Source of the DNA: Escherichia phage KEP4
DNA length: 64,000 nucleotides
Strand: one strand, 5' to 3'
Sequence record: PP047754
Part shown: positions 4,905-55,343 of the stretch, one piece after another
Layout of the letters: every line of letters begins with the position of its first letter
Numbering within the stretch: the stretch's first letter is position 1
Program-made: the position numbers and the translations under genes
Notes under the pieces: generated by a model
Databases searched by the model: none
What the model saw: only the letters and a program-made list of their open reading frames with translations
What the model was told of the DNA's origin: nothing

Positions 4905-4909
4905 AACTA

Positions 4910-4946
4910 AATACCCCTAGATGACATGAATACATTTAGGGGTATT
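4910..4946 (+). promoter_or_regulatory. hairpin fused to late-promoter box (CTAAATACCCC at 4907-4917); 10-bp stem aataccccta/taggggtatt
   Basis: perfect inverted repeat 4910-4919 / 4937-4946; right-arm GGGG lies 8 nt before ATG 4951. Confidence 0.6.
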
Positions 4947-4950
4947 ACAA

Positions 4951-7900
4951 ATGGCCAACAAACCAACACAGCCTCTTTTCCCTTTGGGTTTAGAAACTTC
5001 TGAGTCTTCGAACATAAAAGGCTTCAACAACTCCGGCACTATTGAGCATTCCCCTGGTGCCGTAATGACATTTCCTGAAGATACTGAAGTTACAGGTCTT
5101 CCATCTTCTGTGCGTTACAATCCTGATAGTGATGAATTTGAAGGTTATTACGAAAACGGTGGTTGGTTGTCTTTGGGTGGCGGCGGAATACGCTGGGAAA
5201 CGCTCCCTTACGCTCCCTCTAGCAATTTGTTAGAAGGTCGCGGCTATCTCATTAATAATACGACAGGGACTTCTACAGTGGTTCTCCCTTCCCCTACGCG
5301 CGTTGGTGATTCAGTTACAATTTGTGATGCCTATGGGAAATTCGCGACGTATCCATTGACTGTATCTCCAGCGGGAAATAACCTGTACGGCTCCACCGAA
5401 GATATGACGATATCCACCGATAACGTGTCGGCGACTTTCACTTGGTCTGGTGCCGAGCAGGGTTGGGTTGTTACATCTGGTGTTGGCCTCGGCCAAGGTC
5501 GTGTGTACAGTCGTGAGATTTTCACTCAAATTTTAGCATCTGAAACAAGTGCTGTCACTCTCAATACTCCACCAACAATCGTGGACGTGTATGCTGACGG
5601 AAAACGTCTTGCGGAATCCAAATATTCACTAGATGGGAATGTAATCACTTTCGACCCTTCTTTACCTGCCAGCACTGAATTGCAGGTAATAGAATATACT
5701 CCGATTCAGTTGGGCACTGGCGGCGGGGGTTCGGGCGCTTCTGCAATCACCTGGATTTACAATGGCGGATCCGCTATTGGTGGCGAAACCGAAATAACGC
5801 TAGATATCGTTGTAGATGATGTTCCGGCTATTGATATAAACGGGTCTCGTCAGTACAAAAATCTTGGATTCACGTTCGACCCATTGACGAGTAAAATCAC
5901 TCTGACGCAAGAACTGGAACCAGAAGATGAAGTTGTTGTGGTTATAAATGGGACACCAAACATTTATAACCAAATCGATCGTTCTTTACAGGAAGTTGCT
6001 CGCGCCTACAATTTTACAAATGCTCAAGTTATTTTGAGCAACGATTATACTTCTGTTCTGGATAATAAAGTCGTTATTTATGATACGACATCCCAACGTT
6101 CTTGGGGGATTCCATCTGGAATCCCAGCAGGTTCTACAGTGGTTTCCGTCAATGGGGATCAACTGAAGTACAAAAATGGATCAACTGAAACCACTGTTAC
6201 ATTGGTGAGTGTACCAGGTAGTGCAGAGAAATTGAAGAACGATCTGGCTTCAAACTCTGGTTCAGGTATGTTGAAAACTTCTAGAGGTGATACCGTAGAA
6301 GAAGAATTGACTTTCATTAATCAGAATATGGTCGTTCAAATTTCAGATTTCGCGAGTCTTAGAACTTTAGTGCCAGCCACAGCGGGTATCCGAGTCAAAT
6401 TGAAAGGTTATTATTCTGGTTCTGAAATCGGTGGCGGAGAATTCATTTCTGTCGCTGGAGATGCTGTTGATGATGCTGGGATGATTGCTCGAGTGTCAAG
6501 CAGCTTCTATTGGAAGAGAATTATCGACAAACACATTACTCCTGGCATGTATGGCATCAAAGGGAATCTTCCAGAAGATCCGGCAGTGAAACTGAACGCT
6601 ATGTTTACGGCTGCGGCTGCGGCTAACGCTTATGTCTTACTGAACGATGTCGACACTCTGGTCTGTAAAAGCCCTGTCGTGATTCCAGCACATTCATTAG
6701 TGTACGGCAACAAACGAACTATACTGAAACGTGATGCATCGTTGTCATATGCTAATGATTTCTTGACAATTATGAATGATTCATATGTCAAGGGGATCTA
6801 TGTTGATGGTAGCCGTTTAGATTCTCAGACTCCTCTAGAAGCAGTTTTGGTGCGTATCGCTGGGAATGTAACTATCCATAAGAGTGAGATCCGAAACAAT
6901 GCTGGCTATGGCGTTGTTGGTAACGCAGTCCCTGGTATTCGTATCACCAAGAACATTTTTTCCAACTTCGCCAAAGGTTGTGTAGCCATGTTTGGCGACG
7001 GAACAGCGACGAGTGATGATCTGCAAATTAATGATAACAGATTCTTTAACCTGGGCGCGGGAACCATTTATGTTGGCGGTTACTCAAACTTCCTTGTCGA
7101 CAAAAACGTCGGAAGAGGCACTTACGTGGGTTCTCCAGGAAACCGTCTGTATGTTGTGACCAATACTAACGGGACTATCACCCAAAGCGCTGGGCCAGAT
7201 TTTGGGCCATTGAAAACGGGTATGTTCTTTGTATTGCCTGGTGGTTCTGAACATATGATAACGGCGGTCAACAGCCTTACCAGTGTGACAGTAACCCCAC
7301 CACCGCCGTCGAACGCCACAGTTCGTGCAATCGCAGGGACAGGGGATCTTCTGGGCATCCAATCATGCTCCTACGGCACCATCAGCCGTAACAACCTGAC
7401 CGATTGCGTGACTTACGGAACTGGTGGAGGCACGATGGAGGGGAGCACTCTGGGTTGCAATTATGTCACTTGGGAAGACAACTTCATCCGCAACACAGGT
7501 AAGAACGGAATCAACGTCGGGCAATCAGGCGCTGGGGTTGCCACGTGTTCTATCCTGAGGAACACTCTGATACAGGTTGGTAACGGCGGTCAGGGTGTTG
7601 GCCCAGCGTATCTTCTGCCTTGGTTCGATACGCTAGGTATCGCTCTGTATCAGGGAAACCCAGGTTATATGGCGAATATGGACGTCAGTGATAACAACGT
7701 CTCTACATGGTCTGGCGATCTGAATGACGGCGCTGCTTGGTTTGGTATGAGCGGTTGTACGGAAGCCACTGTGACTTGTACAGGCAACAAATCTTCTGGT
7801 TATTCCGACGGCTATGTTCGTGGAGATATATTAGAAGTCACGTTGACAGGTTATGGTACAGGGGCGGCTGCGACTTCATTCGTTAGTGATGGTGAGTCTA

Positions 7901-8124
7901 TACAGATAACCGTTCAAACAGGTACTTCACCAACAGCTTCACCTTATTTTTCAGTGCGGAAGGCGATCCGCACCCGCCATCAACCGATGATAACGGCGCA
8001 GATCGTCACCACAACTGGGAACATGTCTCATTGTTGGGGTATGCAATCTAGTACAGCAGGAAACTGGATGGTGGGTCAGAATACAACTCCTTCGGGGCTT
8101 ACGACATATTACGCAAAAGGGTAA
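4951..8124 (+). CDS. tailspike protein, long form (1057 aa) with N-terminal attachment domains and a C-terminal beta-helix-like region
   Basis: shares an internal module with ORF 10771 (SLQEVARAYNF...VVIYDTTSQRSWGIPSGIP vs SIQEIARSANV...VVYDVAAQTSYGLPTIP); Gly/Asn-rich periodic C-terminus. Confidence 0.7.
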   Translation: MANKPTQPLFPLGLETSESSNIKGFNNSGTIEHSPGAVMTFPEDTEVTGLPSSVRYNPDSDEFEGYYENGGWLSLGGGGIRWETLPYAPSSNLLEGRGYLINNTTGTSTVVLPSPTRVGDSVTICDAYGKFATYPLTVSPAGNNLYGSTEDMTISTDNVSATFTWSGAEQGWVVTSGVGLGQGRVYSREIFTQILASETSAVTLNTPPTIVDVYADGKRLAESKYSLDGNVITFDPSLPASTELQVIEYTPIQLGTGGGGSGASAITWIYNGGSAIGGETEITLDIVVDDVPAIDINGSRQYKNLGFTFDPLTSKITLTQELEPEDEVVVVINGTPNIYNQIDRSLQEVARAYNFTNAQVILSNDYTSVLDNKVVIYDTTSQRSWGIPSGIPAGSTVVSVNGDQLKYKNGSTETTVTLVSVPGSAEKLKNDLASNSGSGMLKTSRGDTVEEELTFINQNMVVQISDFASLRTLVPATAGIRVKLKGYYSGSEIGGGEFISVAGDAVDDAGMIARVSSSFYWKRIIDKHITPGMYGIKGNLPEDPAVKLNAMFTAAAAANAYVLLNDVDTLVCKSPVVIPAHSLVYGNKRTILKRDASLSYANDFLTIMNDSYVKGIYVDGSRLDSQTPLEAVLVRIAGNVTIHKSEIRNNAGYGVVGNAVPGIRITKNIFSNFAKGCVAMFGDGTATSDDLQINDNRFFNLGAGTIYVGGYSNFLVDKNVGRGTYVGSPGNRLYVVTNTNGTITQSAGPDFGPLKTGMFFVLPGGSEHMITAVNSLTSVTVTPPPPSNATVRAIAGTGDLLGIQSCSYGTISRNNLTDCVTYGTGGGTMEGSTLGCNYVTWEDNFIRNTGKNGINVGQSGAGVATCSILRNTLIQVGNGGQGVGPAYLLPWFDTLGIALYQGNPGYMANMDVSDNNVSTWSGDLNDGAAWFGMSGCTEATVTCTGNKSSGYSDGYVRGDILEVTLTGYGTGAAATSFVSDGESIQITVQTGTSPTASPYFSVRKAIRTRHQPMITAQIVTTTGNMSHCWGMQSSTAGNWMVGQNTTPSGLTTYYAKG

Positions 8125-8137
8125 TATTGAATGCCTA

Positions 8138-8171
8138 AATACCCCATATTGGTCATCCTTTATGGGGTATT
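8138..8171 (+). promoter_or_regulatory. hairpin fused to late-promoter box (CTAAATA 8135-8141); 11-bp stem aataccccata/tatggggtatt
   Basis: perfect inverted repeat 8138-8148 / 8161-8171; GGGG 7 nt before ATG 8175; near-identical copy at 10726-10765. Confidence 0.65.
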
Positions 8172-8174
8172 ATC

Positions 8175-10715
8175 ATGATTTCTCAATTCAATCAACCACG
8201 CGGTTCCACTTCCATAGAAGTTAACAAACAATCTATCGCTCGAAATTTCGGTGTCAAAGAAGACGAAGTCGTTTATTTCACTGTCGGTATTGACCTCAGT
8301 GGATTTAAAGTAATTTATGATGAGTCTACCCAACGGGCTTATTCTCTCCCTTCCGGTATTGTTTCAGGGACAACTGCAATTAGTCTGGATGAAAGAGCTA
8401 TCCTCACTCATTCTTCTGGCTCTGTTGACCTTGGGGAATTAGCAGTAAGCCGCGAAGAATATGTGACTTTACCTGGTTCTTTTAATTTCGGCCATACCAT
8501 TAATGTGAAAAATGAACTTCTTGTTCACGATGATGAAAAATATCGATGGGATGGTTCTTTGCCAAAGGTAGTTGCCGCTGGTTCTACACCCGATAACTCA
8601 GGCGGTGTTGGCACAGGCGCGTGGATACCTGTTGGCATTAATTCTTTGTCTGGCGATGGTGGTTGGTCGCGTATCGGATCAGAATTTGGTAAATCTTTGA
8701 AAGAACATATTCAAAGTCTTCCCAGCTTGTCTGCTGTCAAATATATGACATTTGTTGAATACGCAGCCCTTTTGGCAGGAAACGACACGGTCAATCATGA
8801 CGTTAAAGTTCAGCAAGTTATGGATGAAGCGCATGAATTGAAATGCTCTGTTTATTTTCCAACAGGGCGTTATGTATTTGACACTGCAGTCAACGTTTGG
8901 ACATACGTTCGCGCTGTTTGGGGAGACGGTTCGGCCATTATCACCAGACGTTACGGAAGTCAGTTTAGTTCCCCTGGGGTGATAGATCCGGCGCATGATA
9001 CGCGTAAATTATTCCGAATGATGGGCGGAGCGTTGGGACCGCAGTCTATTCATGGTCTTATTATTGATGGTAATGCGCGTTCATTTACAGTCCCAAAACA
9101 TACTGATTCGGATCAAACTTATCCCAACCAAACTTATTATGGCGATGTTGAACCAGTCGATGTTGGCCCATATGTATTTGGACCGGAAGGAAATACTTCT
9201 GTTCCTGGCGCTTCTTACTATAACCATGATAAGAAAGAATCCGGTCTGACCGTTTTCGATATGGTGTTTAAAGATCAACCTGGTGGTGGTGTCGTAGGTA
9301 ATGGCCAAAACGTCCGTGTGTTTGGAAATCACTTTATGGGTTGGTATGACCATGCTGTGTATATCGCCGGAAGTAACTTTGCCTCGGAAGGAGACGGAAT
9401 TTTGTGTAGTGATATTGTTGTCACTGGTAACGTATTCCGAAATCGTATTAACAATCGAGGCAATGGAGCAGTCAAAGCACGATTTGGTGTTAATCGTTAC
9501 GCAGTTACAGGCAACTCCTTTGATATAGTTGACTATTGCATGGCATTTGAGATGGGTAATGGACCAGCGACTCAACCATTTGGCCAAATTGTTGTGGACG
9601 GCAACGTGTGCACTTCAGATGGTATGTTTATGCAAATCGGGAATGATATTGGGACTGAGTGGTTCTCGACCAATTGGCTCAAATCAATGACTATTACGAA
9701 TAACACAGCACGGTCGTTGGATCGCATTTTCTTGTTAGGGGTTAGCGGATCTTCCAGTTATATTATGGATGGGTTTTCTGTACAAGTGGCCAATAACCGA
9801 TTTTATGCGCCGTCATTTTTGTCCGTGTACACATTCATGACGAATACGGAATGGATGTTGAATAACAATATCGTGGAGATCACAGGAACTGCTATGATCA
9901 CAGGAGTTGATCAATCGAACATCAACAATTCACGGATATATCTTAAAGATAATGTTTTAGGAGTTCTCCGGACTGATGTTCAAGGTTATGCTGCAGTCAG
10001 TAATTTTCAACAAGTTGAAATTTCTAATAATACATTGCGTAATTTGTATTTCCAAATAGGAAGTTATACCACAGATCTGTTTATTAAAGGAAATACTGTT
10101 AACTACACATCTGCATTATCCAGTAAAAACTTGGCGCTCATGTATTCAAGTGCTGGGAATGGTTTGATAACAGCCGATATCAGTGATAATAAGTTTTTCG
10201 GTGGAGTTGGTCGTTGCCAACTTAAATTCAGTAGCAGCGCTTCTCTGGATTGTATTAACAACAAATTCTTTACAACTTCGGCACCGTTTTTGGAATTGCA
10301 TCCGGCTGGTTATACTCCACGTGTCGTTCGTATAAAGGACAATTTAATGCGTGGTGCAGGCGTATTGCTGGCTCCTCTTGCTTCTGGTGTTTCTTTGTCC
10401 GGTGCTGGGAATTATATGGTAATTTCGGGAAACACGTTGATGGCTAATAACCCATCTGCGCCTGAAAATATAACTTTGTATCAGGACACAGGTGCGCAGA
10501 GTTGGGTGGCCCATTATGAAACTATCAGATGTGTTCGAAATGATTTCAAATCTGCGCTGTTGGCGATTAATGCAACAGGGACAGCACAATCTGGTTTGAG
10601 TACTACCAATAAATTCTGGTTCGGGGATAACGCGACGATTAATACCACGGTTGTTTGTACTTATCCTGCTGGCAACAAAGCCAACACCGACATCACCCAG
10701 ACAGTTTCAGTTTAA
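8175..10715 (+). CDS. tailspike protein (846 aa), parallel beta-helix type
   Basis: N-terminal ~150 aa paralogous to ORF 13591; middle region has pectate-lyase-like repeats (GNGQNVRVFGNHF, VTGNVFRN, VTGNSFD). Confidence 0.7.
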   Translation: MISQFNQPRGSTSIEVNKQSIARNFGVKEDEVVYFTVGIDLSGFKVIYDESTQRAYSLPSGIVSGTTAISLDERAILTHSSGSVDLGELAVSREEYVTLPGSFNFGHTINVKNELLVHDDEKYRWDGSLPKVVAAGSTPDNSGGVGTGAWIPVGINSLSGDGGWSRIGSEFGKSLKEHIQSLPSLSAVKYMTFVEYAALLAGNDTVNHDVKVQQVMDEAHELKCSVYFPTGRYVFDTAVNVWTYVRAVWGDGSAIITRRYGSQFSSPGVIDPAHDTRKLFRMMGGALGPQSIHGLIIDGNARSFTVPKHTDSDQTYPNQTYYGDVEPVDVGPYVFGPEGNTSVPGASYYNHDKKESGLTVFDMVFKDQPGGGVVGNGQNVRVFGNHFMGWYDHAVYIAGSNFASEGDGILCSDIVVTGNVFRNRINNRGNGAVKARFGVNRYAVTGNSFDIVDYCMAFEMGNGPATQPFGQIVVDGNVCTSDGMFMQIGNDIGTEWFSTNWLKSMTITNNTARSLDRIFLLGVSGSSSYIMDGFSVQVANNRFYAPSFLSVYTFMTNTEWMLNNNIVEITGTAMITGVDQSNINNSRIYLKDNVLGVLRTDVQGYAAVSNFQQVEISNNTLRNLYFQIGSYTTDLFIKGNTVNYTSALSSKNLALMYSSAGNGLITADISDNKFFGGVGRCQLKFSSSASLDCINNKFFTTSAPFLELHPAGYTPRVVRIKDNLMRGAGVLLAPLASGVSLSGAGNYMVISGNTLMANNPSAPENITLYQDTGAQSWVAHYETIRCVRNDFKSALLAINATGTAQSGLSTTNKFWFGDNATINTTVVCTYPAGNKANTDITQTVSV

Positions 10716-10730
10716 ATTGAATTGAGCCTA

Positions 10731-10765
10731 AATACCCCATATTGGCAAATCCTTTATGGGGTATT
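10731..10765 (+). promoter_or_regulatory. hairpin fused to late-promoter box (CTAAATA 10728-10734); copy of the 8138 element
   Basis: inverted repeat 10731-10741 / 10755-10765; the in-frame ATG at 10756 lies inside the right arm. Confidence 0.65.
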
Positions 10766-10770
10766 TTCAA

Positions 10771-13536
10771 ATGACCAGAAATGTAGAAGAATTATTCGGC
10801 GGCGTAATCACAGCTCCCCACCAGATTCCTTTCACTTATAAATCAAGTGTCGGTGGAGAAACTTTCTTTTCTCTACCTTTCTATCCTGTCACTGGCGTAG
10901 TCACAATTAACGGCGGCATGCAAGTTCCGTTAGACAACTTCGAGATAGACGGGAATACGTTGAATCTCGGGCGCGCATTGTCCAAAGGCGATGTTGTGTA
11001 TTGCTTATTCGATAAAATTCTTTCACCAGAAGACACTGCCAAAGGCATCCGCATATACAAATTTCAAGCCGTGGGTGGAGAAACTGAATTCACGCCTGAC
11101 TTTACTTCTTATGGTGTACAGTCTCTTTATATCGGTGGCGAATACAAAACTCCTGATATAGAATATTCCTATAACAGCACGACAGGGAAAGTGTCTTTGC
11201 AAACTGCATTGACTGCAGGCGTTTGGGTAGTCGCTGAAATGTCTGTTAAACAACCGAATATCAGTCCGGCGTTTGATCGCAGTATTCAAGAAATTGCCCG
11301 TTCTGCTAATGTGAAAGACTCTGAAGTCATCGTTAGTACGGACACCATATCTTTATTGGATGGGAAGAAAGTTGTTTATGACGTAGCGGCGCAAACCAGT
11401 TATGGCTTACCAACCATTCCTGATGGTTCTGTCATTTCTTCTGTTAGTAATGGGCAACTTACTTATAATCCAGGTAATGTTGTAGTGGATTTGTTACCTT
11501 TAGAAGATTCATTTATTAATGTGATAAACACTCTGGGGCGCAATGATGGTGCCAAGTATATCGGAGAATGCCATTCTGTTGCTGATCTCAGGAATACTGA
11601 ACCCACTATGGATGGACAACGCATTATTCTTAAGCAACACACTGCGGGTACTCTTCTTGGTGGAGGGGTATTCCGTGCGTTAATTGATGGTACAGGAAAG
11701 ACTGATGATAACGGCACTGTGATCAAAACTGTTGGCGGCGCAGCCTGGTTACGTGTTAATGCTGATAGAGTTAACCCATTCATGTTTGGTGCTTTGGGCG
11801 GTTCTAATGATGATACTATTCCAGTACAATCTTGTGTGGACAGTGGTAAGGCCACACAATTAACTGGTGTACATTACGTTAGCAATATCCGGTTAAAATA
11901 TAATACGTCGTCTATTTATGGGTCTGGATTACATTACTCCAGGTTGCATCAGTTGCCTTCTGCTACTGGGAATTGTATTACCATAAAAGATACATGCTCC
12001 CTTATTGTATTAGACTCCTTTGGGGTATATGGCACAGGTGCACAACAAGGCACATCATTTACTGCGGGTACAACAGGTATCTATATAGAAACTCCTTCAG
12101 GTCTCTCAGCCGATTATCCGTTCCACACTACCGCAGACCCAAGACGCGACTTGTGTATTTCTAAGGTCCATATAGCAGGTTTTGATGAATATGGGTTAAA
12201 TATTGATAGTGGTAACTTTAGTGTTACTACAGATTCTCTTTTAGTCAACCACATCAATCAGGTGGGCGTCCGTTGTGCTACTACTGATTGGACTTGGACA
12301 AATATTCAGGTTAATACCTGCGGTAAACAATGTCTGGTTCTTGATGGTTGTGGTAATGGTCGTATTATTGGTGGTAAATTCATTTGGGCTAACTGGCAAC
12401 CTTATGGTACAGTAGGACAGTTCCCAGGCATTACTATTAATAATAGCCAGAATATGGTTATTAATGGTATTGAGGTACAAGATTGTGGCGGGAATGGCAT
12501 TGAGATTAGCGATTCATATTCAATTTCCATGAACGGATTGAACACCAATCGTAACGGCATCAACGCTAACAACACTTTCTACAACATCGTATTTAACAAA
12601 AGTGATGCAGTTATCAACGGATTCGTAGGACTCAATTATGCTGCGAATAGTGGTTCAGGTGCTAACTCTAGTGCAGGCAATTTTCAGTTCCTGTCTAATG
12701 ATTGCAGCGTCACCATTAATGGTGTGGTTGAGACTGGTTATATGGGCATTAACTTTATTGGTGATAACAATATTATCAACCCCACAAATTCCGAACTGAG
12801 CATTAACGGATTGGTTAATTATTCCAAGACTGGTTTGCAAACCATGAACGAGACCCCTACATTTGATGGTGTTAGCACTACACCTGTTTATGTAAGTGTC
12901 CCATCTTCTGTAGGGCAAGTAAATGGTCTGAGACTATCACAAGCCAACAAAGATAAATTACTGTACTCAAGAACAGCAGGTCCAGAAGGTATTACCATGG
13001 CTGCTGTTGTAGTACCTACCATATCTGGAGCTGAAGTATTTAACTTCATGGCCATTGGTTCAGGGTTTAGTGATACATCCAACAGTCTTCATCTTCAATT
13101 AGTTATAGACGCTTCTGGAAAACAAACAATTGCTTTGCTATTGGGGGGCGATGGTACAACCCAAATTTTATCTGGGGATTTACCTAACGACCTTAAACTA
13201 CAAAGTGGTGTGCCATATCATATAGCTATTGGTGCTAAACCTGGATATTTCTGGTGGAGTATTCTTAATATTCAGACGGGTAAGAGAATCAGACGGTCAT
13301 TCCGAGGCGCTTATTTAGCTGTACCATTTAATTCTATATTCGGATTAACTTCTTCATTAACATTCTTCTCGGATAGCAATGCTGGTGGGGATGCCTGTTC
13401 TGGTGTAGGTGCTAAAGTGTATGTTGGTATGTTCTCTTCTGAGAATGATTATGTAGCTTCACGGTACTACAACCTGATTAATCCTGTAGACCCTAATAAG
13501 TTAATTAGTTACCGTATATTGGATTCTTCTATTTAA
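10771..13536 (+). CDS. tailspike protein (921 aa) with N-terminal attachment domains and beta-helix
   Basis: start set to ATG 10771 (hairpin-spacer-ATG as at 4951 and 8175) rather than track ATG 10756; repeats GNGRIIGG, NGIEVQDCGGNGIEISD. Confidence 0.7.
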   Translation: MTRNVEELFGGVITAPHQIPFTYKSSVGGETFFSLPFYPVTGVVTINGGMQVPLDNFEIDGNTLNLGRALSKGDVVYCLFDKILSPEDTAKGIRIYKFQAVGGETEFTPDFTSYGVQSLYIGGEYKTPDIEYSYNSTTGKVSLQTALTAGVWVVAEMSVKQPNISPAFDRSIQEIARSANVKDSEVIVSTDTISLLDGKKVVYDVAAQTSYGLPTIPDGSVISSVSNGQLTYNPGNVVVDLLPLEDSFINVINTLGRNDGAKYIGECHSVADLRNTEPTMDGQRIILKQHTAGTLLGGGVFRALIDGTGKTDDNGTVIKTVGGAAWLRVNADRVNPFMFGALGGSNDDTIPVQSCVDSGKATQLTGVHYVSNIRLKYNTSSIYGSGLHYSRLHQLPSATGNCITIKDTCSLIVLDSFGVYGTGAQQGTSFTAGTTGIYIETPSGLSADYPFHTTADPRRDLCISKVHIAGFDEYGLNIDSGNFSVTTDSLLVNHINQVGVRCATTDWTWTNIQVNTCGKQCLVLDGCGNGRIIGGKFIWANWQPYGTVGQFPGITINNSQNMVINGIEVQDCGGNGIEISDSYSISMNGLNTNRNGINANNTFYNIVFNKSDAVINGFVGLNYAANSGSGANSSAGNFQFLSNDCSVTINGVVETGYMGINFIGDNNIINPTNSELSINGLVNYSKTGLQTMNETPTFDGVSTTPVYVSVPSSVGQVNGLRLSQANKDKLLYSRTAGPEGITMAAVVVPTISGAEVFNFMAIGSGFSDTSNSLHLQLVIDASGKQTIALLLGGDGTTQILSGDLPNDLKLQSGVPYHIAIGAKPGYFWWSILNIQTGKRIRRSFRGAYLAVPFNSIFGLTSSLTFFSDSNAGGDACSGVGAKVYVGMFSSENDYVASRYYNLINPVDPNKLISYRILDSSI

Positions 13537-13540
13537 AAAT

Positions 13541-13562
13541 ATACCCCTCTTCGGAGGGTATT
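13541..13562 (+). terminator. terminator-like hairpin (tacccctc-ttcg-gagggta) followed by TTT
   Basis: GC stem with ttcg tetraloop directly after stop 13536; shares the ATACCCC motif with the promoter hairpins. Confidence 0.5.
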
Positions 13563-13590
13563 TACTAGAGAAAAACAGGAGATTCTTATT

Positions 13591-15825: not shown

Positions 15826-15831
15826 AATACA

Positions 15832-15857
15832 AGCCCCCAATAAGGGGGCTTTCTTTT
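15832..15857 (+). terminator. rho-independent terminator (agccccc-aataa-gggggct + TTCTTTT)
   Basis: 7-bp GC stem plus U-tract after the tailspike block. Confidence 0.75.
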
Positions 15858-15915: not shown

Positions 15916-15922
15916 CTAAATA
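15916..15922 (+). promoter_or_regulatory. late-promoter-like box CTAAATA (also TATAAAAT at 15926-15933)
   Basis: about 35 nt upstream of ATG 15956. Confidence 0.4.
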
Positions 15923-15955
15923 TCTCTATAAAATGGCACTCGATGGAGCATCAAA

Positions 15956-18900
15956 ATGCAATCTACAAATTTAAACCGTCGCCCGTATTGGGATGACTGG
16001 AATCCTGGGAAACGTTTTTCACGGATTCTTTTTCGTCCGATGCCTATCAAGGTTCAGACTCGCGAACTGAATCAGATGCAGACTATTCTTCAGGATCAAA
16101 TTGAAAAACTGGGCAACCATTTGTTCAAAGATGGTTCTATGGTTATCCCTGGCGGTTTGACGATCACTAACGCCGCAGTCTCTTTGAAATTCACTTTGGC
16201 TGGTGGTACTGAATTCACTGATCTGGAAGGTATTTCTGAACTCTACGTTTTGGGGAAAGACAATAACGCCAAAGCGCGTGTGCTGTCTCTTGAACGTGAT
16301 CTGTCTGCTCCTGATACAATGCTGGCTATCCTTGAGATGACTGAAGCGGGTAATGCTGACGGATTCCATGTTAACGATAATCTGTATTTCCAGACTTACG
16401 ACGTGAATGATAATTTCATTCGTATTGGTTATGGGATCGCGGCTGCTGTGACTGGTTCTATCGTTGCTCGTATGACGAAAGGCGTTTACTTCATTCGTGG
16501 GATGTTCCTAGACGTTGATGACGCGACTCTTATCGTTGATAAAACTTCGAACACGTCTTCCCACCGCGTCGGATTTAAAGTCACTGAAACCATCGTGACT
16601 GAATCTGAAGACGAATCCCTTTATTCAAATGCTCAGGGAACGATTAACTCCAAAGCCCCAGGCGCTCATCGTCTTCGAATAGATCTGGTCTTATCTCGAT
16701 TTGATTATGATGCTGTGGTTGAAGACTTTGTTGAACTGGCCAAAGTTCGTGATGGTAAAATCCAGTCTATGGTGACTCAGTCCACCTATAATATTCTGGA
16801 AGACACGTTGGCCCAACGGACGTATGAAACCAACGGCGATTACAACGTTTCAACGCACCAGATCGACATCCGCGAACACCTGAAAGTCAATAACAATGGT
16901 GGTGTATTCAATGCTGCTGATGGCGGCGACGAAAGTAAATTCGTGTCTGTAATGAAACCAGGTATTTCCTATGTTCGCGGTCGCCGTATCGAAAACGTCG
17001 GGGAAGAGTTGGTGATCGTTGATAAGGCGCGGGATACCGATGTCCTGAACAACACCCCTGTTGCGGTGGCCACAGGCAATTATCTGGTCACTAAGAATTC
17101 TAAAGGTGTGCCAGTGATATCCCGCACCGTTCGATACAAATTACTGAATGCTTCAGGCGTTACCCAGGCTACAGCACTTTGTATATCAGCTGAACGTAAT
17201 TCAACAGAATTTCGTCTGTATATGCGCGACCTGGTCGTTACTGGCGATGCATCCACTATCACCAAAGTGTCTTACGAAGAAAGCGGTATCACCATGTTCT
17301 CTGCTGAACTGGAATCCAATCAGTTTAACCAGAGTTCTATGATAGATCTGATCTTCTCTCTTCCGGTATTCGGTGTCAAGACTTTAGCACCAACTGGCTC
17401 CGTGGATATCAACTACACTGTTCTCAGAACGTATAAAGTGACGTTGGACAACAGCGGCGCGGGTTCTATTTCTGCTCCATTGGGATATAGTTTTTCCCCA
17501 GAATTTTCGTTGTACTCTGCAGCGAAATCTGATGGTTCTGAAGCGCAGTTCGATATCTCTGGTTCTTTGTCTTTGACTGGTTCTCCGGTCGGTTCGGCGT
17601 TGCAGATTTCTCTGGGCAGTGGTAATGCTAACCAGTCAATCAATTTGCTGGCGCTGATGATTCGTACCACGGCCACAATCAAAACGAAGACCATCACTGA
17701 AACAACTGAAACAGTGACGTTCACCTCGCAGACTAGCCACCCTTTGGCGAATCACGATGGTTGGAAATTGGTGTCGGTCAAAAACGATACTGGCGCAGAC
17801 GTGACCTCCAGCTTCGTCCTAGATGGCGGACAGCGTGATGCAGGGTATTACAAGTCTAACTTGTTATCCAGCGCTGGAGCAATCTCAGGGACGTATACAG
17901 TGGTGTATCAATACTTCGCCCACAGTTCCGGTGATTTCTTCTCTGCTGATTCGTATACTTCGATGGATTATAAAGATATCCCGAATTATACATCTTCTAC
18001 ATCAGGCGCGGTGTACGGCCTGGCAGATAGTTTGGATTTCCGTCCGAAAATCACCAACGGAACTTCTGACACAGATATGGTTCGTCCAAACACTGCAGTT
18101 ATTCTGGACACAGAATATTATCTGCCGCGTATTGACGCGATTTATCTGGCAGATAACGGTGTGTTTGGTGTGGCTCGTGGCATCAGTTCGAACAATCTGG
18201 CTTCTCCAGCAATCCCAGCGAACGCCATGCGTTTGTATGAATTGTTGATCCCACCGTATACGCCGAATATTGATGATATCCAAATTCGCACTATTGACAA
18301 TCGTCGTTATACGATGCGCGATATCGGTAAACTGGAAACCCGTATTTCCAATGTTGAATACTATACCTCTCTGTCACAGTTGGAATCTTCAGCGATGACA
18401 CAGCAAGTGTTTGACCCCATCACGGGTAATCCTCGTTTCAAAAATGGTATTGCAGCTGATCCGTTCAAAGACTTCCGGTTGATTGATGACTTGTCTGAAG
18501 ATTGGATGGGTTCTATCGATACCGAAAACGGACGTCTGCGCCCGTTTGTACAACAAAACGTTGTTGACATGACTCCGGTTGGCTGGAACAAAGTGATGGA
18601 TGGGATGGTGGTTTGTAATTACACGCCTGAAATCTCAGTGAACCAAGAATATGCGACGACGACGATCAACGTTAACCCGTATGCAGTATTCAACTGGGAA
18701 GGTTTCTTGAAGATTAACCCGACCACGGACTACTGGTTCGAAAACTATTATGTTGCCCCGCGTATTATTAATGAAACGATCAACACCCGTGGTACTGTAC
18801 AAGAAGGTTCAGTGTACGGAACATGGCGGACTGTTTCTGTTTCTGATCGTGTTTGGGAGCCGCATGGTGCTGGTGGTGTGTGGTGGGGATATCGTTACCG

Positions 18901-22431: not shown

Positions 22432-22456
22432 CTAAATACCTTCAAAATTGAGGGTA
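22432..22456 (+). promoter_or_regulatory. late-promoter box CTAAATA plus hairpin (taccttc/gagggta) whose 3' arm GAGGG is the SD of the next gene
   Basis: same architecture as the tailspike-upstream elements; 7-bp stem with one G-U pair. Confidence 0.5.
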
Positions 22457-26681: not shown

Positions 26682-26688
26682 CTAAATA
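26682..26688 (+). promoter_or_regulatory. late-promoter-like box CTAAATA upstream of the sheath gene
   Basis: immediately after TerL stop; about 40 nt before ATG 26731. Confidence 0.4.
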
Positions 26689-26730
26689 TCTTTCAAATTG
26701 AGCGAAACTCTACCGAGAAGGAATGATATT

Positions 26731-33647: not shown

Positions 33648-34970
33648 ATGACTAAGAAACTTGTAACCGAAGAAATGCGCAAACAGTGGCTGCCAGTTCT
33701 CCAAAAAGAATCTGAAGCTATTCAACCTCTGTCTGCCGAAAACGTAACCATCCGTCTGATGCAGAACCAGGCTGAATGGAACGCAAAAAACCTGGGCGAA
33801 TCTGACGCACCTGGTTCTGTGAACAGCACTGTCGGTAAATGGCAGCCAGTTCTGATCGACATGGCAAAACGTCTGGCGCCGATCAACATCGCGATGGACT
33901 TCTTCGGTGTTCAGCCGCTGTCTGGTCCTGACGGTCAGATCTTTGCACTGCGCGCTCGCCAGGGTGTTGGTGACAGTTCCAACACCGCACAGTCTCGTAA
34001 AGAACTGTTCATGCAGGAAGCCGATTCCGGCTATTCCGGTGATGGTACTGTACAGGCTGGCGACCCGTCAGGCTTTAGTCAGGCTGAAATCGAAGGTTCT
34101 GGCTCTGGCGTGACCACTATCGGTAAAGGTATGCCGTCAACCGACGCGGAACTGCTGGGTACTACCACCAATCCGTGGGCGCGTGTTGGTATCACCGTTC
34201 AGAAAGCGACCGTTACTGCCAAGTCTCGCGGCCTGTATGCTGATTACAGCCATGAACTGCGTCAGGATATGATGGCAATTCACGGCGAAGACGTGGATAA
34301 TATCCTGTCTGACGTGATGGTAACTGAAATTCAGGCGGAAATGAACCGTGAATTCATCCGTACCATGAACTTCAGTGCTGTTCGCTTCAAAAAATTCGGA
34401 ACCAACGGTGTTGTTGATATCGCGCAGGACATCTCTGGTCGTTGGGCGCTGGAAAAATGGAAGTTCCTGACTTTCATGCTGGAAGTTGAAGCGAACGGTA
34501 TCGGTGTTGACACCCGTCGTGGTAAAGGCAACCGTGTTCTGTGTTCTCCGAACGTGGCATCCGCTCTGGCGATGTCTGGCATGCTGGACTATGCTCCAGT
34601 TCTGCAGGAAAACACTAAACTGGCTGTTGACCCGACTGGCCAGACCTTCGCTGGTGTTCTGTCCAACGGTATGCGCGTCTATGTTGACCCGTATGCTGTA
34701 GCAGAATATATCACTCTGGCATACAAAGGCGCAACTGCGCTGGATGCTGGTATCTTCTTCGCGCCGTATGTGCCGCTGGAAATGTACCGCACCCAGGGTG
34801 AAACCACCTTCGCTCCGCGTATGGCGTTCAAAACCCGTTACGGCATCTGTGCTAACCCGTTCGTACAGATTCCGGCTAACCAAGACCCGCAGGTTTACGT
34901 GACTGCTGACGGTATCGCTCAAGACAGCAACCCGTATTTCCGCAAAGGTCTGATCAAATCTCTGTTCTAA
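33648..34970 (+). CDS. major capsid protein (T4 gp23-like)
   Basis: FFGVQPLSGPDGQIFALRA, AKSRGLYADYSHELRQD, ICANPF and NPYFRKGLIK match conserved T4 gp23 segments. Confidence 0.9.
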   Translation: MTKKLVTEEMRKQWLPVLQKESEAIQPLSAENVTIRLMQNQAEWNAKNLGESDAPGSVNSTVGKWQPVLIDMAKRLAPINIAMDFFGVQPLSGPDGQIFALRARQGVGDSSNTAQSRKELFMQEADSGYSGDGTVQAGDPSGFSQAEIEGSGSGVTTIGKGMPSTDAELLGTTTNPWARVGITVQKATVTAKSRGLYADYSHELRQDMMAIHGEDVDNILSDVMVTEIQAEMNREFIRTMNFSAVRFKKFGTNGVVDIAQDISGRWALEKWKFLTFMLEVEANGIGVDTRRGKGNRVLCSPNVASALAMSGMLDYAPVLQENTKLAVDPTGQTFAGVLSNGMRVYVDPYAVAEYITLAYKGATALDAGIFFAPYVPLEMYRTQGETTFAPRMAFKTRYGICANPFVQIPANQDPQVYVTADGIAQDSNPYFRKGLIKSLF

Positions 34971-38179: not shown

Positions 38180-38207
38180 TATAAATACCCCCAAAATTGG
38201 GGGTATT
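38180..38207 (+). promoter_or_regulatory. exact T4-type late promoter TATAAATA (38180-38187) fused to hairpin aataccccc-aaaatt-gggggtatt
   Basis: 9-bp perfect stem 38184-38192 / 38199-38207; GGGGG 6 nt before ATG 38210. Confidence 0.65.
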
Positions 38208-38209
38208 TT

Positions 38210-38938
38210 ATGAACGCACAAATCTACGATGTCCTTTCCTCTGGTAATGCATTTAGCAACCCGCTTCCGTCCCTCTCCGGTCCCTCACAGGATTTAATCA
38301 CCAGTGGTAGTACCAATATACCATTGATAACTGCCAACGCGACTCCGGAGATGCAGGCGGCTATGGTTGCTGGTGGACTAACACCAGAAAAACTCACAGC
38401 AGCCACCACCATGTATAGCGCCGCCAACACGGGGATAACGACACTGAACACATATGGAGACCAAAGTATCAATGACGCGTATTCTCGCATCGGTACTTCC
38501 GTGTCATACAAATCAGGTCTGAAGGGTATATCACGAGAGCCAAACAATTGTGATTTGATCAACAAGGCTTTTGGTGTTGTTCAGGATTTAGGACGCCAAT
38601 GGCTGAATGCTATGGAAGGTGCTCTACAGACCGTAACAAACAAGATATCGGAATTGTATGACATGATTATGGAAGGTGCCTCAGAAGGGATGGCAAAACT
38701 ACAGCAATTGGCTGCTGAAGTAACAGGACATATCAATGAGGCAATAACCGCCGTCAATGGAGTTATAAACGATATCACCGATGGGATAGCTGCAGAACTT
38801 GCTCATATTGAAAGTATGATCAAAGAATGTCTAAACTTCTCTTTTGCGAATGTTCTTGGAGAATGGGCTAAAGATCTCTGTGCTGGAGGCGTTATTGATA
38901 AAATAGGGACTCCAGAATTAAAAGAGTCCCTGAAATAA
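38210..38938 (+). CDS. hypothetical late protein (242 aa), likely virion-associated
   Basis: driven by late-promoter/hairpin element; Ala/Thr-rich N-terminus, alpha-helical C-terminus. Confidence 0.55.
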   Translation: MNAQIYDVLSSGNAFSNPLPSLSGPSQDLITSGSTNIPLITANATPEMQAAMVAGGLTPEKLTAATTMYSAANTGITTLNTYGDQSINDAYSRIGTSVSYKSGLKGISREPNNCDLINKAFGVVQDLGRQWLNAMEGALQTVTNKISELYDMIMEGASEGMAKLQQLAAEVTGHINEAITAVNGVINDITDGIAAELAHIESMIKECLNFSFANVLGEWAKDLCAGGVIDKIGTPELKESLK

Positions 38939-40614: not shown

Positions 40615-41360
40615 TGGTTTCTCTACAGGCTTTGCGCAAACTTAATGACTTTGAAAATCGTCATCATACATTTCAGCAATATTCCTTGCCGTTTAAGGAA
40701 CTGACTTGCGTAACTACCGAAAATGGTCGTCACTATGTTTCCCCCACTGGAGTCAAACTAACTTCAGTGACGACCATGTTAGGGCGTACTGGTGACCACA
40801 CATGGTTAGAAGCCTGGCGGGACAAGTTGGGGCATGAAGCTGCTGATATAGAAACACATCGTTGCGCAGACCGTGGGGAAAAACTTCATTTGGCTTGTGA
40901 GTTGTATCTCAAAAACAGACCAATGAAGGAAGTTCTGGAAGCTGCAGGGGAATACGTGTTTATGTTCAAACAGGTTTTCCCCTACCTTAACAAAATGAGC
41001 AAGATATATGCACAAGAGATTCCATTATATAGCGAAGTCCTGGGTCTTGCTGGTCGTGTTGACCTCATCGGGGTTTACGAAGGAATTCCAAGCATAATCG
41101 ATTTCAAAACATCTAACACCCTAAAAACTCGAAGCATGATAGAAGATTATAGTATTCAATTGTGTCTATACTCAGTCATGTTTCAACAAATGTTTAATGT
41201 CAAGATAGAGCGTTTAATCAATATTATATCCAACGAAAATGCCCTTGTTCCCACCATAATCGAATTCGATCGCAAAGACGTTATTTCTAAAATGTTTGAC
41301 CGTGTCCGTCTGTATCACAAAATGGACAAAGAACAGAAAGGAATCTGGGCGGATCGCTAA
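40614..41360 (+). CDS. PD-(D/E)XK-family nuclease (Cas4/RecB-like fold), tentative
   Basis: GRVDLIGVYEGIPSIIDFKTS fits the D...(I/V)DxK motif; TAATG overlap with the upstream gene. Confidence 0.45.
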   Translation: MVSLQALRKLNDFENRHHTFQQYSLPFKELTCVTTENGRHYVSPTGVKLTSVTTMLGRTGDHTWLEAWRDKLGHEAADIETHRCADRGEKLHLACELYLKNRPMKEVLEAAGEYVFMFKQVFPYLNKMSKIYAQEIPLYSEVLGLAGRVDLIGVYEGIPSIIDFKTSNTLKTRSMIEDYSIQLCLYSVMFQQMFNVKIERLINIISNENALVPTIIEFDRKDVISKMFDRVRLYHKMDKEQKGIWADR

Positions 41361-41363
41361 ATA
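41357..41363 (+). promoter_or_regulatory. late-promoter-like box CTAAATA overlapping the upstream stop codon
   Basis: 27 nt upstream of uvsW ATG 41390; GGGGG 9 nt before the ATG. Confidence 0.35.
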
Positions 41364-41389
41364 CTCCATAATATTGGGGGAAATTAGTG

Positions 41390-52650: not shown

Positions 52651-54867
52651 ATGATTGAATCATTAACATTTAAAAATGCGGTAGCAACCGTCGCGCCGTC
52701 TAACCATGTAATCGTTGTGGATATCTCCGGTTCCATGTACCGTTCACTTCCTGAAGTTCGCAAGCATCTGAAGGAAAATCTCCCGTCTCTGGTTAAACCA
52801 GAAGATACCGTCAGCATTCTTTACTTTTCATCCCGTGGTGATTTCGGTACGGTATTCGCTGGCCGTCAGATCAATAGCGCGACCGATCTCAGTGAAATCA
52901 ATAAACTGATTGACCGCTTCCTGCAACCGTCCGGTTGTACGGGATTTGTAGAACCTCTGAAGTTGGCTGCTGAAACCGCGTTGAGCCTGAACAAACCTGG
53001 TTATGTCAATAACCTGGCGTTCATGACCGACGGCTATGACAACTGCTGGCGCTCTAATGAAATTCTGGCAGCAGCTGAAGTACTGCCCAAGGCGTTCGAT
53101 AATATTACATTCATCGAATATGGCTGGTATTGTAACCGCGAACTTCTGGCTCTGATGTCCGAGCGTTCTGGCGCGACTCACGTGTTTGCCGAAGGTCAGA
53201 CTGAATATCAGACCGAACTGGAAAACGTACTGAAATCATCTACGCCGAAAGTGGTTGTTGATGTTCCCCTGGTTTACACTCATGCCATCTACGTTGAAAA
53301 CGGCGTGGCAACTGTGCTAGCCGTACAACCCGATGAAGAACACCCGATTGGCCACGTCAGCATCCCTGAAAGCGTTTCTCAGCTGTGGGTTGTAAACCCT
53401 AACATGATCGACCAGCTGGATAATCTGGCAGACACCCAGGCGGCATACGTGCTGGCATTCTATGGCGTGTACACCATGGACGCCGATCTGGTCTGGGCCG
53501 CGCTGAAGAAGACGGGTGACGTCCGCTTCATCAAACAATACAGCAACTGTTTCACCAAGCAGGACTATTCCAACATCAAAGTCGATCTGACCCAGGCTAT
53601 CGTGGATGAAACTCTACGCGGCGTAGATGGCATCGATTACAATATGGTTCCAGCTGAAGATGCAACGACCATTGTTGATGTCTTGACCTACCTGGCCGAA
53701 GCCGATGTCTCTGTTGTCACTAAGCATCCATTGTTCTCTTACAACAGCATCGGTCGCGGCACTGTGCAGAAAGTTGATGACACTGAAGACAAGCTGGCTG
53801 AACAAATCGCCGAAGCCAAAACCAAAGCAGAGCGTAAAGCGCTGGCTCTCAAACTGGCTGAGCACGAAGATTGGACACCGGAATTTACTCCGGTTGATGA
53901 CAAAGGGATTGTCCCAATTAGCAATCTGGTCTACAATTCAGAGCGCCCTAACATCAGCATTCAGACCGTTCAGCATGGGACGGTTGTTGTGCCGGAGTTC
54001 GTACAGAAGAAATATGAACTCCCTGAAGAACTGGGAACCTGGCGTTATCGTAATTACACCATCGTCAAAGATGGAATCATCAACCTGAAGACGATGCCGA
54101 TTACTGCCGAATCTCCGATTGTCCGAGCTAAGGTTGTCCAAGATTTGATCGCCATGGGCGTTAATGTATTTGGTGGACCGGAAATCTTCATCGTTAATTT
54201 AGAAAGCGTTCCGATGGTCAACCGCGCCATGACCAAGAACATCAGTGCTGCCGAATTCTTCGCTGACAACGTTCGTCGCGAAGCGCTGAAGGCAAAACAG
54301 AAAGTTCTGAAATTCTATCGTGATGAACTGGTTGGCAAAGGCAATGCAACTGGTCTGGCTTCTAAATATGGTAAAGAAGCCGCCGATTTCTTGTCGGCAA
54401 ATGGCATTCGCGACTACGGGTTCTCGCCGAAAACTACTTCTGTGGAATCAACCGATGTCTACATGAGCCGTGAGCTGAATGTGAAAATCAAAGGTGCTTC
54501 GTCGCTGCCGAGCATTGCGTCAGTTATCAAAAAGCAAGCAGATGGTAAAAAACTGAATGTCGCTGATCAGTTGATTGCCAATGCTTTGGCCGAATACGAC
54601 GCTTTTGTTAAATCGCCAATGATCACCAGCGTACCTGAAGAGACTCAGAAAAAGCTGATTGAAAGCTGGATCGGGGACGCAGCAAAAGCGGCCATTAACG
54701 AAGTCCGCGCCCTGAACAAAACTCTGTCTAAAGTAGTTTACGGCATCGTCGCTGGTCATGGTTGGTTCACTGATTTGGATCTGGAAGAGTCTACGATGGA
54801 TGTAGAAGTTGATGGGGTGAAATACACCGTCACTGCCGAACTGGCCGAAAAAGAAATCAAAATCTAA
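52651..54867 (+). CDS. von Willebrand factor A (vWA) domain protein, 738 aa
   Basis: N-terminal MIDAS-type motif VVDISGSM with downstream TDGYDN; track start 52615 is GTG; 267-bp untranslated region upstream. Confidence 0.65.
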   Translation: MIESLTFKNAVATVAPSNHVIVVDISGSMYRSLPEVRKHLKENLPSLVKPEDTVSILYFSSRGDFGTVFAGRQINSATDLSEINKLIDRFLQPSGCTGFVEPLKLAAETALSLNKPGYVNNLAFMTDGYDNCWRSNEILAAAEVLPKAFDNITFIEYGWYCNRELLALMSERSGATHVFAEGQTEYQTELENVLKSSTPKVVVDVPLVYTHAIYVENGVATVLAVQPDEEHPIGHVSIPESVSQLWVVNPNMIDQLDNLADTQAAYVLAFYGVYTMDADLVWAALKKTGDVRFIKQYSNCFTKQDYSNIKVDLTQAIVDETLRGVDGIDYNMVPAEDATTIVDVLTYLAEADVSVVTKHPLFSYNSIGRGTVQKVDDTEDKLAEQIAEAKTKAERKALALKLAEHEDWTPEFTPVDDKGIVPISNLVYNSERPNISIQTVQHGTVVVPEFVQKKYELPEELGTWRYRNYTIVKDGIINLKTMPITAESPIVRAKVVQDLIAMGVNVFGGPEIFIVNLESVPMVNRAMTKNISAAEFFADNVRREALKAKQKVLKFYRDELVGKGNATGLASKYGKEAADFLSANGIRDYGFSPKTTSVESTDVYMSRELNVKIKGASSLPSIASVIKKQADGKKLNVADQLIANALAEYDAFVKSPMITSVPEETQKKLIESWIGDAAKAAINEVRALNKTLSKVVYGIVAGHGWFTDLDLEESTMDVEVDGVKYTVTAELAEKEIKI

Positions 54868-54911: not shown

Positions 54912-55223
54912 ATGAGCAACAAACCGACTTATGTTGATGTCATGCGCGATTTGGCCCAATACGCATGTGACAACCTGAACATGGAAACTTGGCGCGACGG
55001 CGATCATAAAGAAAAGTTCGATAATATCGACGACAACATCGATGCGTTGGCTCCTCTTCGGGCCAAGAGCGATCTCGGCGGTGATGATCTTGACATGATT
55101 GAACTCATCATGGAAGTTGAAGAACAATATGATGTTGAAATCAGTGATGACTGGGTAGGCAAACATGGTGATGATCCCACGCTCGGCGAATTAGCTGAAT
55201 TGGTAGTTGCCCTCAGCAAGTAA
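54912..55223 (+). CDS. acyl carrier protein-like protein with Asp at the phosphopantetheine-attachment position
   Basis: SDLGGDDLDMIELIMEVEEQYDVEI aligns with ACP helix II ([24 protein letters not shown]) but has D where the conserved Ser lies (codon 55086-55088 gat). Confidence 0.6.
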   Translation: MSNKPTYVDVMRDLAQYACDNLNMETWRDGDHKEKFDNIDDNIDALAPLRAKSDLGGDDLDMIELIMEVEEQYDVEISDDWVGKHGDDPTLGELAELVVALSK

Positions 55224-55231
55224 ACCAAAAG

Positions 55232-55259
55232 AATCCCCAATATTTATTGGGGATTTTTA
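55232..55259 (+). terminator. rho-independent terminator (aatcccca-atatttat-tggggatt + TTTAC)
   Basis: 8-bp stem plus U-tract. Confidence 0.7.
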
Positions 55260-55343
55260 CTTTTAGGGGTTTACTTCTTCTAAAGAATATCCTATTATTC
55301 AATAACTGGCTAACGTGGGGTTGGCTAGAAAAGGAGATACAAA

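Follow-up and report, generated by a model that had tools for sequence, protein, structure and literature searches.

The three tailspike genes that begin at 4951, 8175 and 10771 in Escherichia phage KEP4 (sequence record PP047754; the 64,000-nucleotide stretch analyzed here is called the window) are each preceded by a composite element in which a late-promoter box runs into a hairpin whose 3′ arm carries a Shine–Dalgarno (SD) sequence. The best-supported explanation, which we hold to be probable, is that the late promoter lies inside a hairpin that hides the ribosome-binding site (RBS), and that the gene's own late transcript would be the one translated. This explanation builds on the anatomy of the element, its conservation, the site-specific complementarity of its two halves, and a predicted folding switch. 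An earlier note on this DNA had described the composite element before the three genes, and an exact copy of CTAAATACCCC with a paired right arm is present at each. The interpretation offered there holds for the box, the SD arm, the folding switch, and the site-specific, conserved pairing; it gives way on termination, on a supposed further copy at 13541, and on the restriction to tailspikes.

Anatomy of the element

Between positions 3700 and 14000, the window is ~95% identical to the Kuttervirus phages ECML-4, Vi01, and AR2819, whose genes in this region are annotated as tailspikes or tail fibres. The window is a Vi01-like Ackermannviridae (Kuttervirus) genome with the usual four-tailspike cluster; Pfam places a beta-helix in the protein encoded at 4951 and a Tail_spike_N domain in those encoded at 8175 and 13591.

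A motif search of the window located exact copies of CTAAATACCCC at 4907, 8135, and 10728. When one mismatch is allowed, CTAAATACCCC gives five matches against 0.49 expected, and five or more were seen in 0 of 100 shuffles; GGGGTATT occurs ten times against 1.28 expected. The anatomy of the element is not due to chance. All three copies lie on the plus strand. At tailspike 1, the box CTAAATA (4907–4913, extended as CTAAATACCCC to 4917) matches the published family motif exactly, and its LIMEstone1 ortholog is annotated as a late promoter. It overlaps a hairpin that we call type A (4910–4946), whose arms at 4910–4923 and 4933–4946 are 14 nucleotides (nt) long and 93% complementary, with one G·T pair, according to the repeat finder; the right arm contains the SD GGGG (4939–4942), ahead of the ATG at 4951. 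The box of tailspike 2 (8135–8141) is again an exact match and stands at the edge of homology with four other genera. It leads into a type-B hairpin (8138–8171) with 11-nt arms at 8138–8148 and 8161–8171 that are 100% complementary, the SD GGGG at 8164–8167, and the ATG at 8175. At tailspike 3, the box (10728–10734), also exact and at the edge of homology with relatives, leads into a second type-B hairpin (10730–10766), whose 12-nt arms at 10730–10741 and 10755–10766 are likewise fully complementary; the SD GGGG (10758–10761) is followed by TATTTTC and the ATG at 10771. The perfect stems of 10–11 base pairs given in the earlier note are thus found, at 11 and 12 nt, in the two type-B copies, whereas the stem at 4910 is longer and imperfect.

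Folded from box to ATG, the elements at 4907, 8135, and 10728 reach −19.1, −19.6, and −18.8 kcal/mol, with z scores of −7.3, −5.1, and −5.8 against dinucleotide shuffles and loops of 9, 12, and 13 nt. The two type-B copies, reported earlier as near-identical 40-mers, share 37 of 42 aligned columns, and their differences are confined to the centre of the loop. The edges of these loops (8149–8160 and 10742–10754), which read TTGG...ATCCTT, are more strongly conserved among genera than would be expected of a loop.

The GGGG of the right arm lies 8, 7, and 9 nt before the ATG of the genes at 4951, 8175, and 10771, respectively, and no other purine-rich stretch lies in between, just as the earlier note had it. 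GGGG is presumably the SD in use, and the annotators of phage Maynard also label the corresponding GGGG as the RBS. For tailspike 3, the longest open reading frame starts at an ATG at 10756, inside the right arm of the hairpin (TTATGGGG); the N-termini of the orthologs (MTRNVE or MSRN) favour the ATG at 10771 as the start. In Klebsiella phage UPM 2146, the annotated start is the ATG within the hairpin and is probably misplaced. At gathering thresholds, Rfam returned no family match anywhere in the window.

Late promoter and predicted start

The box is best understood as a late promoter of the T4 type. CTAAATAcCcc is the regulatory (late-promoter) motif of the Ackermannviridae or 'Viunalikevirus' phages (cited in PMC7283392), and the authors of the LIMEstone1 genome predicted 33 late promoters, including sites orthologous to boxes in the window. 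The published assignments of Ackermannviridae late promoters that we found are in silico only, and the CBA120 paper, which lists homologs of gp55, gp33, and gp45 in CBA120, ViI, and AG3, treats the family late promoter as still unidentified. Among the products annotated in LIMEstone1 are gp33, the gp45 clamp, and a late sigma factor. The late TATA box of T4 is placed upstream of the start by about one helical turn, and AT-rich DNA comes after it (PMC2988020); the T4-like phage Aeh1 has CTAAATA as its late promoter, with the first base at −12 (PMC1524935). The published motif, the LIMEstone1 annotation, and the Aeh1 box all bear out the earlier view that the left arm of the hairpin overlaps a late-promoter box. 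Since the Aeh1 box begins at −12, the predicted +1 at the window boxes falls ~6 nt after TAAATA, just past CCCC. By this analogy, a late RNA starting there would keep at most 2–3 nt of the left arm.

A predicted folding switch

Transcripts that read through the element from upstream and transcripts that start at the box are predicted to fold differently. In read-through contexts of 110–131 nt, the hairpins stay in both the minimum-free-energy and centroid structures, with z between −2.4 and −3.4; the tailspike 2 hairpin (8138) persists in a 126-nt context. For RNAs that begin at the predicted +1, folding is weaker than in shuffled sequences (z = +0.7 to +1.7). For the three tailspikes, the predicted probability that the SD is unpaired rises from 0.02–0.09 in the read-through RNA to 0.45–0.51 in the late RNA, in line with the proposal in the earlier note that transcripts from the box would expose GGGG: the modelled late RNAs lose the hairpin and the accessibility of their SD increases. 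The same quantity rises from 0.30 to 0.53 over 65 box genes in six genomes, as opposed to 0.47 to 0.56 over 155 equally truncated genes that have no box; the difference between the two sets (p = 4e-8) comes from pooled sites that include orthologous, non-independent ones, a point that counts among the reservations weighed below. In the modelled late RNA of the type-B copies, AUCCU in the loop pairs weakly with GGGGU, and a second, weaker anti-SD may remain.

A switch of this kind presupposes read-through, and the genes upstream of the tailspikes are co-oriented with them, with no terminator-like site called between 1092 and 4907 in the terminator scan. Among the LIMEstone1 late promoters, strong hairpins are found at 7 of 19 sites with a co-oriented upstream neighbour and at 0 of 9 others (Fisher one-sided p = 0.043), a context that fits, as weak evidence, an action on read-through RNA.

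A folded SD on a polycistronic RNA might also be freed by translation itself, with a ribosome that terminates on the upstream gene melting the hairpin. Such translational coupling would suit 4907 and a further strong copy of the element at 38181, where only 4–5 nt separate the upstream stop codon from the left arm. At 8135 and 10728, however, the stops are 13–14 nt from the arm, and the reach of a terminating ribosome, as judged from the ribosome footprint, falls short of this distance. Even at 4907, the first few pairs of the 14-base-pair stem are all that would open, and we consider coupling very improbable as the basis of the element.

Cognate pairing and conservation

The pairing could in principle be a by-product of a C-rich promoter flank that stands near a G-rich SD, with the whole block kept as the 5′ recombination edge of tailspike modules, since a flank rich in pyrimidines is by nature complementary to an SD rich in purines. 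We compared the flank of each box with its own SD and with the SDs of other box genes over ~42 kb around the sheath gene in LIMEstone1, phiEa2809, MK-13, UPM2146, IME250, and Vibrio phage SD25, and in the window. The flank pairs better with its own SD in all seven genomes; in the window, the means are −7.64 kcal/mol for the own SD and −4.27 kcal/mol for other SDs. Summed over the seven genomes, the duplex energy amounts to −466 kcal/mol; permutations average −285 ± 20 kcal/mol, and 0 of 5000 attained the observed sum. The weakest genome, Vibrio phage SD25, gives p = 0.03. Similarly, the 28 late promoters annotated by the LIMEstone1 authors average −5.66 kcal/mol with their own SD versus −3.47 kcal/mol with others (0 of 20000 permutations). 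The LIMEstone1 distribution is bimodal, with about ten sites that pair strongly and the remainder unpaired. A position-wise table of pairs was built from elements preselected for pairing and is descriptive only. That cognate pairs outdo non-cognate pairs in each genome argues against a generic by-product.

Sequence variation among relatives points the same way. The hairpin orthologous to the 38181 copy, at what we call the ORF129 site, is present in 26 of 26 loci covering all genera sampled, and its loop-proximal stem varies as CAA/TTG, CAT/ATG, CA/TG, and TGATG/CGTCA. The type-A hairpin is kept with compensatory change in LIMEstone1 and phiEa2809; in the latter, a G·U pair becomes G–C, and AUG/CAU becomes UGUU/AACA. 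Stems of different sequence occupy the neck-protein site (22432 in the window) in Vibrio phage SD25 and the helicase site (41357) in phiEa2809 (ACUUCUGU / ACAGGGGU). The stems reach into AATA/TATT and into these variable, covarying bases next to the loop, beyond what a C-rich flank and a G-rich SD would supply. Furthermore, T4 late promoters prefer AT-rich DNA below the box, so that CCCC is no obvious promoter requirement, and the same design recurs at genes that are not exchanged, namely those for the endolysin, the ORF129-like protein, and the homing endonuclease I-LimII.

The case for a recombination edge comes chiefly from the type-B copies. Homology to relatives returns on the first base of the box or no more than 6 nt from it (8135, 10728, 10722), exactly at 8135 for four other genera, and the receptor-binding C-termini that precede the boxes are unrelated among relatives. 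The type-B element, loop edges included, is nearly invariant in 16 loci recovered from IMG/VR across genera, with unrelated sequence just upstream. It precedes two unrelated N-terminal domains, MISQFNQPRGSTS... at 8175 and MTRNVEELFGG... at 10771. The paralog of the 8175 gene at 13591 (MNPQFAQPKGSTS...) lacks the type-B element, which indicates that the element moved independently of the genes. A role as an exchange edge is thus in keeping with the type-B copies, but as a full account of the pairing we regard it as distinctly unlikely.

Several stems in the window contain G·U pairs, which implies that the RNA of the coding strand is the molecule that folds. Wobbles bear directly on a role at the DNA level, whether as a cruciform, as a hairpin in the non-template strand at promoter opening, or as the site of a dimeric protein. 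The palindrome does overlap the region of promoter melting, and late transcription of the T4 type is coupled to replicating DNA. The G·U (G·T) wobbles and their shifts suit one strand only, the arm sequences and loop lengths vary widely between sites, unlike those of a protein operator, and the constant partner in the pairing is the SD; we find a DNA-level role scarcely credible.

Termination and the second junction design

The earlier note allowed that the hairpin might also terminate transcription, and a stronger form of this idea is that the hairpins are primarily terminators or insulators, with the promoter overlapping their A-tract and the SD lying in the stem through compact spacing. The layout does resemble that of Rho-independent terminators: a GC-rich stem after a stop codon, flanked by an A-tract and a T-tract. 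The TATTTT tails at 10728 and 38181 (post-stem GGGGUAUUUU) look like those of reference terminators, and the hairpins at the ORF129 and endolysin sites always have a T-tract; the LIMEstone1 authors annotate terminators at these sites. The restriction of strong LIMEstone1 hairpins to sites after co-oriented genes would suit termination as well. The bare pattern TAAATACCCC-N(2–30)-GGGGTATT was discarded as evidence for the element, as it matches at least 120 mostly unrelated IMG/VR contigs, many of them on both strands; the bare palindrome is generic and terminator-like.

The tailspike copies fit this role poorly. A run of four T residues follows the stem in 4 of 15 strong hairpins, within the window at 10728 and 38181 only; none is present at 4907 (TATTACAA) or 8135 (TATTATCA), and the T-tract is not conserved among the orthologs, most of whose tailspike sites lack one or have a poor one (TATTAAAC, TAATTCAA, AATGGCTC). 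Loops of 9–13 nt are long for Rho-independent terminators, the 3′ arm doubles as the SD of the next gene, and the terminator scan of the window, which called 13545–13558 and 15831–15851, did not call the tailspike hairpins. In phage Maynard, one fused element is preceded, at a distance of ~60 nt, by a dedicated terminator, and the terminators needed elsewhere in the genome are separate structures with separate SDs. The feature that stays constant is the SD in the 3′ arm, 7–9 nt from the ATG, while the T-run varies. Termination is a plausible secondary role at some copies and not a constant feature of the element; as its primary function, we judge it unlikely.

Two junctions in the cluster illustrate the alternative layout. 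The hairpin at 13541–13561, after tailspike 3, was considered in the earlier note to be a related copy and was evaluated here as a degenerate member. It was rejected: there is no clear box, the repeat finder detects no arm at seed 6, and the site belongs to a separate, conserved junction design. It is an ordinary intrinsic terminator of bidirectional appearance (ATACCCCTC-TTCG-GAGGGTAT, GC-rich) that scores as terminator-like on both strands in the terminator scan and that the Maynard annotators labelled a terminator. Downstream of it, the SD AGGAG for tailspike 4 (13577–13581; ATG 13591) is free, and this conventional SD had been noted correctly before. The open leader ACAGGAGATTC(N5–6)ATG after the terminator is kept before tailspikes of the same type in MK-13, LIMEstone1, Maynard, and IME250. 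Tailspike 4 of the window lacks a preceding CTAAATA box. The next junction is also unfused, with a bidirectional terminator at 15831–15851 after tailspike 4 and a box 65 nt further on; this box (CTAAATATCTC) and a separate GGAG SD (15916–15958) serve a gene for a 1612-residue VrlC-like protein. The true terminators at 13541 and 15831, with their separate SDs and separate box, contrast with the fused elements.

Other copies in the window

The earlier note framed the element as linked to tailspikes; it occurs instead at a subset of late promoters across the genome. Boxes of the form (N)TAAATA stand upstream of many plus-strand late genes in the window, among them genes for tailspikes, a baseplate wedge, neck, sheath, and scaffold proteins, and a virion protein. 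The motif search across this genome and its relatives that the earlier note had proposed found the copy at 38181, weaker copies, and orthologs in other genera, all the window copies being on the plus strand.

The further strong copy, ATAAATACCCCCAAAATTGGGGGTATTTTATG (38181–38208), has the box ATAAATA, arms at 38183–38193 and 38198–38208, the SD GGGGG at 38199–38203, and a T-tract, and is followed by the ATG at 38210 of the ORF129-like virion protein. It folds at −16.6 kcal/mol, and its loop of 4–6 nt is as short as that of a Rho-independent terminator (3–8 nt). The gene encodes a virion protein of 242 residues and follows a run of small, probably early, genes; the stretch 38181–38212 looks like a terminator, a late promoter, and an SD mask within ~30 nt. 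In the LIMEstone1 record, the 28-nt 'terminator' near ORF129 (33959–33986 of the fetched segment) lies inside the start of the coding sequence. Its length equals that of the hairpin ~30 nt upstream, and its position is probably a coordinate offset in the record.

Two members are weaker. At 1045–1087, ahead of the gp6-like baseplate wedge gene (ATG 1092), the box CTAAATA is followed by 1051–1057, which pairs with UGGAGAU at 1081–1087, the SD (−11.6 kcal/mol); the stem is identical in LIMEstone1. At 22432–22456, the box and ACCUUCAA pair with UUGAGGGU through one G·U (−9.2 kcal/mol; SD GAGGG) before the Hc2 or gp14-like neck protein gene (ATG 22462), an arrangement that also occurs in Agtrevirus and Taipeivirus and is absent in LIMEstone1 and phiEa2809. 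Two others are weak: 26682–26722 before the tail sheath gene (ATG 26731), with a box and UCUUUC (26689–26694) opposite GAAGGA (26717–26722), at −6.0 kcal/mol and kept in four genera, and 41357–41379 before the UvsW-like helicase gene (ATG 41390), with the box CTAAATA and CUCCA opposite UGGGG, at −7.3 kcal/mol. The folding and flank-to-SD check detected no such pairing at the boxes at 15916, 31464, 37970, and 40110. A palindrome at ~55231–55257 that contains TAAATA was considered as a member and rejected as an ordinary bidirectional terminator. This terminator (55231–55261) consists of AATCCCCAATA-TTT-ATTGGGGATT and a T-run after a gene that ends at 55223, and the minus strand of its loop happens to read TAAATA.

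Endolysin, I-LimII, and the T4 precedent

Relatives of the element are also found outside the window. The LIMEstone1 endolysin gene is preceded by a late box and a AAAUACCUUCGCA/UGCGGAGGUAUUU hairpin (54246–54283 of the record, minus strand) of −18.0 kcal/mol that hides the SD GGAGG in its right arm. This hairpin occurs in all 16 Ackermannviridae genomes recovered from IMG/VR, at −16 to −18 kcal/mol and at −12.9 kcal/mol in one genome. Across these genomes, the SD is invariant and changes in the left arm are absorbed by a shift of a G·U pair, which favours RNA of the coding strand over a DNA palindrome. I-LimII, an HNH endonuclease gene inside the split DNA polymerase gene of LIMEstone1, has a late box and an SD hairpin at 12525–12563 of the fetched segment (AUACUCUUU/GAAGGAGUAU, −9.9 kcal/mol).

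An arrangement of this kind is well established in T4. For genes e, soc, 49, and I-TevI, the late promoter lies within the 5′ strand of a helix that sequesters the SD or AUG; long transcripts fold and are poorly translated, and late transcripts lack the 5′ strand (PMC3014915). I-TevII, I-TevIII, segB, and Aeh1 mobE are under the same control, with a late RNA unable to form the hairpin that sequesters the RBS (PMC2988022). The window tailspikes share with e, soc, and 49 a late box in the 5′ strand and an SD in the 3′ strand of a stable helix, and the endolysin layout of LIMEstone1 and Kuttervirus is the direct counterpart of T4 gene e. There are also differences. The window box is (C)TAAATA followed by CCCC, whereas the T4 box TATAAATA is followed by AT-rich DNA. 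The tailspike copies, unlike gene e, stand inside a late gene cluster, where long transcripts would also be late. Here the design recurs at between about one quarter and one half of the late promoters, as opposed to a handful of genes in T4, and the mechanism, established in T4, is predicted here from sequence and folding. The homing endonuclease systems offer a second comparison: Aeh1 has the same CTAAATA box, and LIMEstone1 I-LimII has the same arrangement. The I-Tev, segB, and mobE systems belong to selfish endonuclease genes, whereas the elements in the window stand before genes for structural proteins (tailspikes, a virion protein, baseplate, neck, sheath) and show no sign of an autorepressor operator. 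Finally, the Ackermannviridae motif CTAAATAcCcc is identical to the left half of the element and occupies the same gene positions; it was published as a linear motif, and our literature search found no paper tying it to a hairpin or a downstream SD, and a search for the box sequence contributed just the Aeh1 paper.

Proposed mechanism

We propose that a gp55-type box, (C)TAAATA, would occupy approximately −12 to −6, and that the 3′ half of the box together with the C-rich bases after it would form the 5′ arm of a hairpin whose 3′ arm is the gene's SD. A read-through RNA, which holds both arms, would fold and hide the SD, and the tailspike would be poorly translated from it. An RNA from the gene's own box, starting ~6 nt after TAAATA, would lack the left arm, carry an unusually unstructured leader, and be translated. 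How much each gene yields would then depend on its own late promoter instead of on upstream transcription. At copies with a T-run (10728, 38181), the hairpin probably also ends part of the upstream transcription. The expected effect on translation follows from the folding predictions and the T4 precedent.

Several points weigh against this mechanism, in addition to the non-independence of the pooled sites. First, this pairing is missing from about half of the late promoters. Second, read-through is not equally apparent everywhere: a rank test of co-orientation falls short of significance (p = 0.20), a moderate stem stands at the gp6 site (1045) despite a divergent upstream neighbour, and the terminator upstream of the fused element in Maynard would leave little read-through to gate there. 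Third, the start position rests on analogy, because our search of the literature on Ackermannviridae transcription start sites and transcriptomes, including 5′-end mapping, found nothing usable. Fourth, the near-invariance of the type-B element means that it yields no covariation, a formal analysis being impossible there, and this invariance could reflect promoter function or recombination. Fifth, the early-versus-late gating of T4 gene e is not directly applicable, because the tailspikes follow other late genes.

Implications

The T4-type device and the family motif were known; what is apparently new is the family-wide use of the device in the Ackermannviridae and its presence at the junctions of tailspike cassettes. 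Our results suggest that constraints from both the promoter and the RNA structure are mixed in the published consensus CTAAATAcCcc, whose lower-case 'cCcc' may stem from the anti-SD arm instead of from promoter recognition. A broader idea, which we offer tentatively as possible but well short of probable, is that the Ackermannviridae have generalised the T4 device to the insulation of cassettes: 'cCcc' would be the anti-SD arm, each spike would be licensed by its own promoter, swaps of the upstream module would be harmless, and the element would serve as the 5′ edge of exchange. If the mechanism is correct, the T4 principle that promoter choice decides the translatability of an mRNA would extend to a different phage family and to many late genes. 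It would also provide a rule by which late promoters, RBSs, and true starts (10771 instead of 10756) could be annotated in over 200 sequenced relatives. In phages that are applied in biocontrol and therapy, host range is set by the tailspike cluster, and for the engineering of tailspike modules, the ~45-nt junction would have to be treated as a functional unit.

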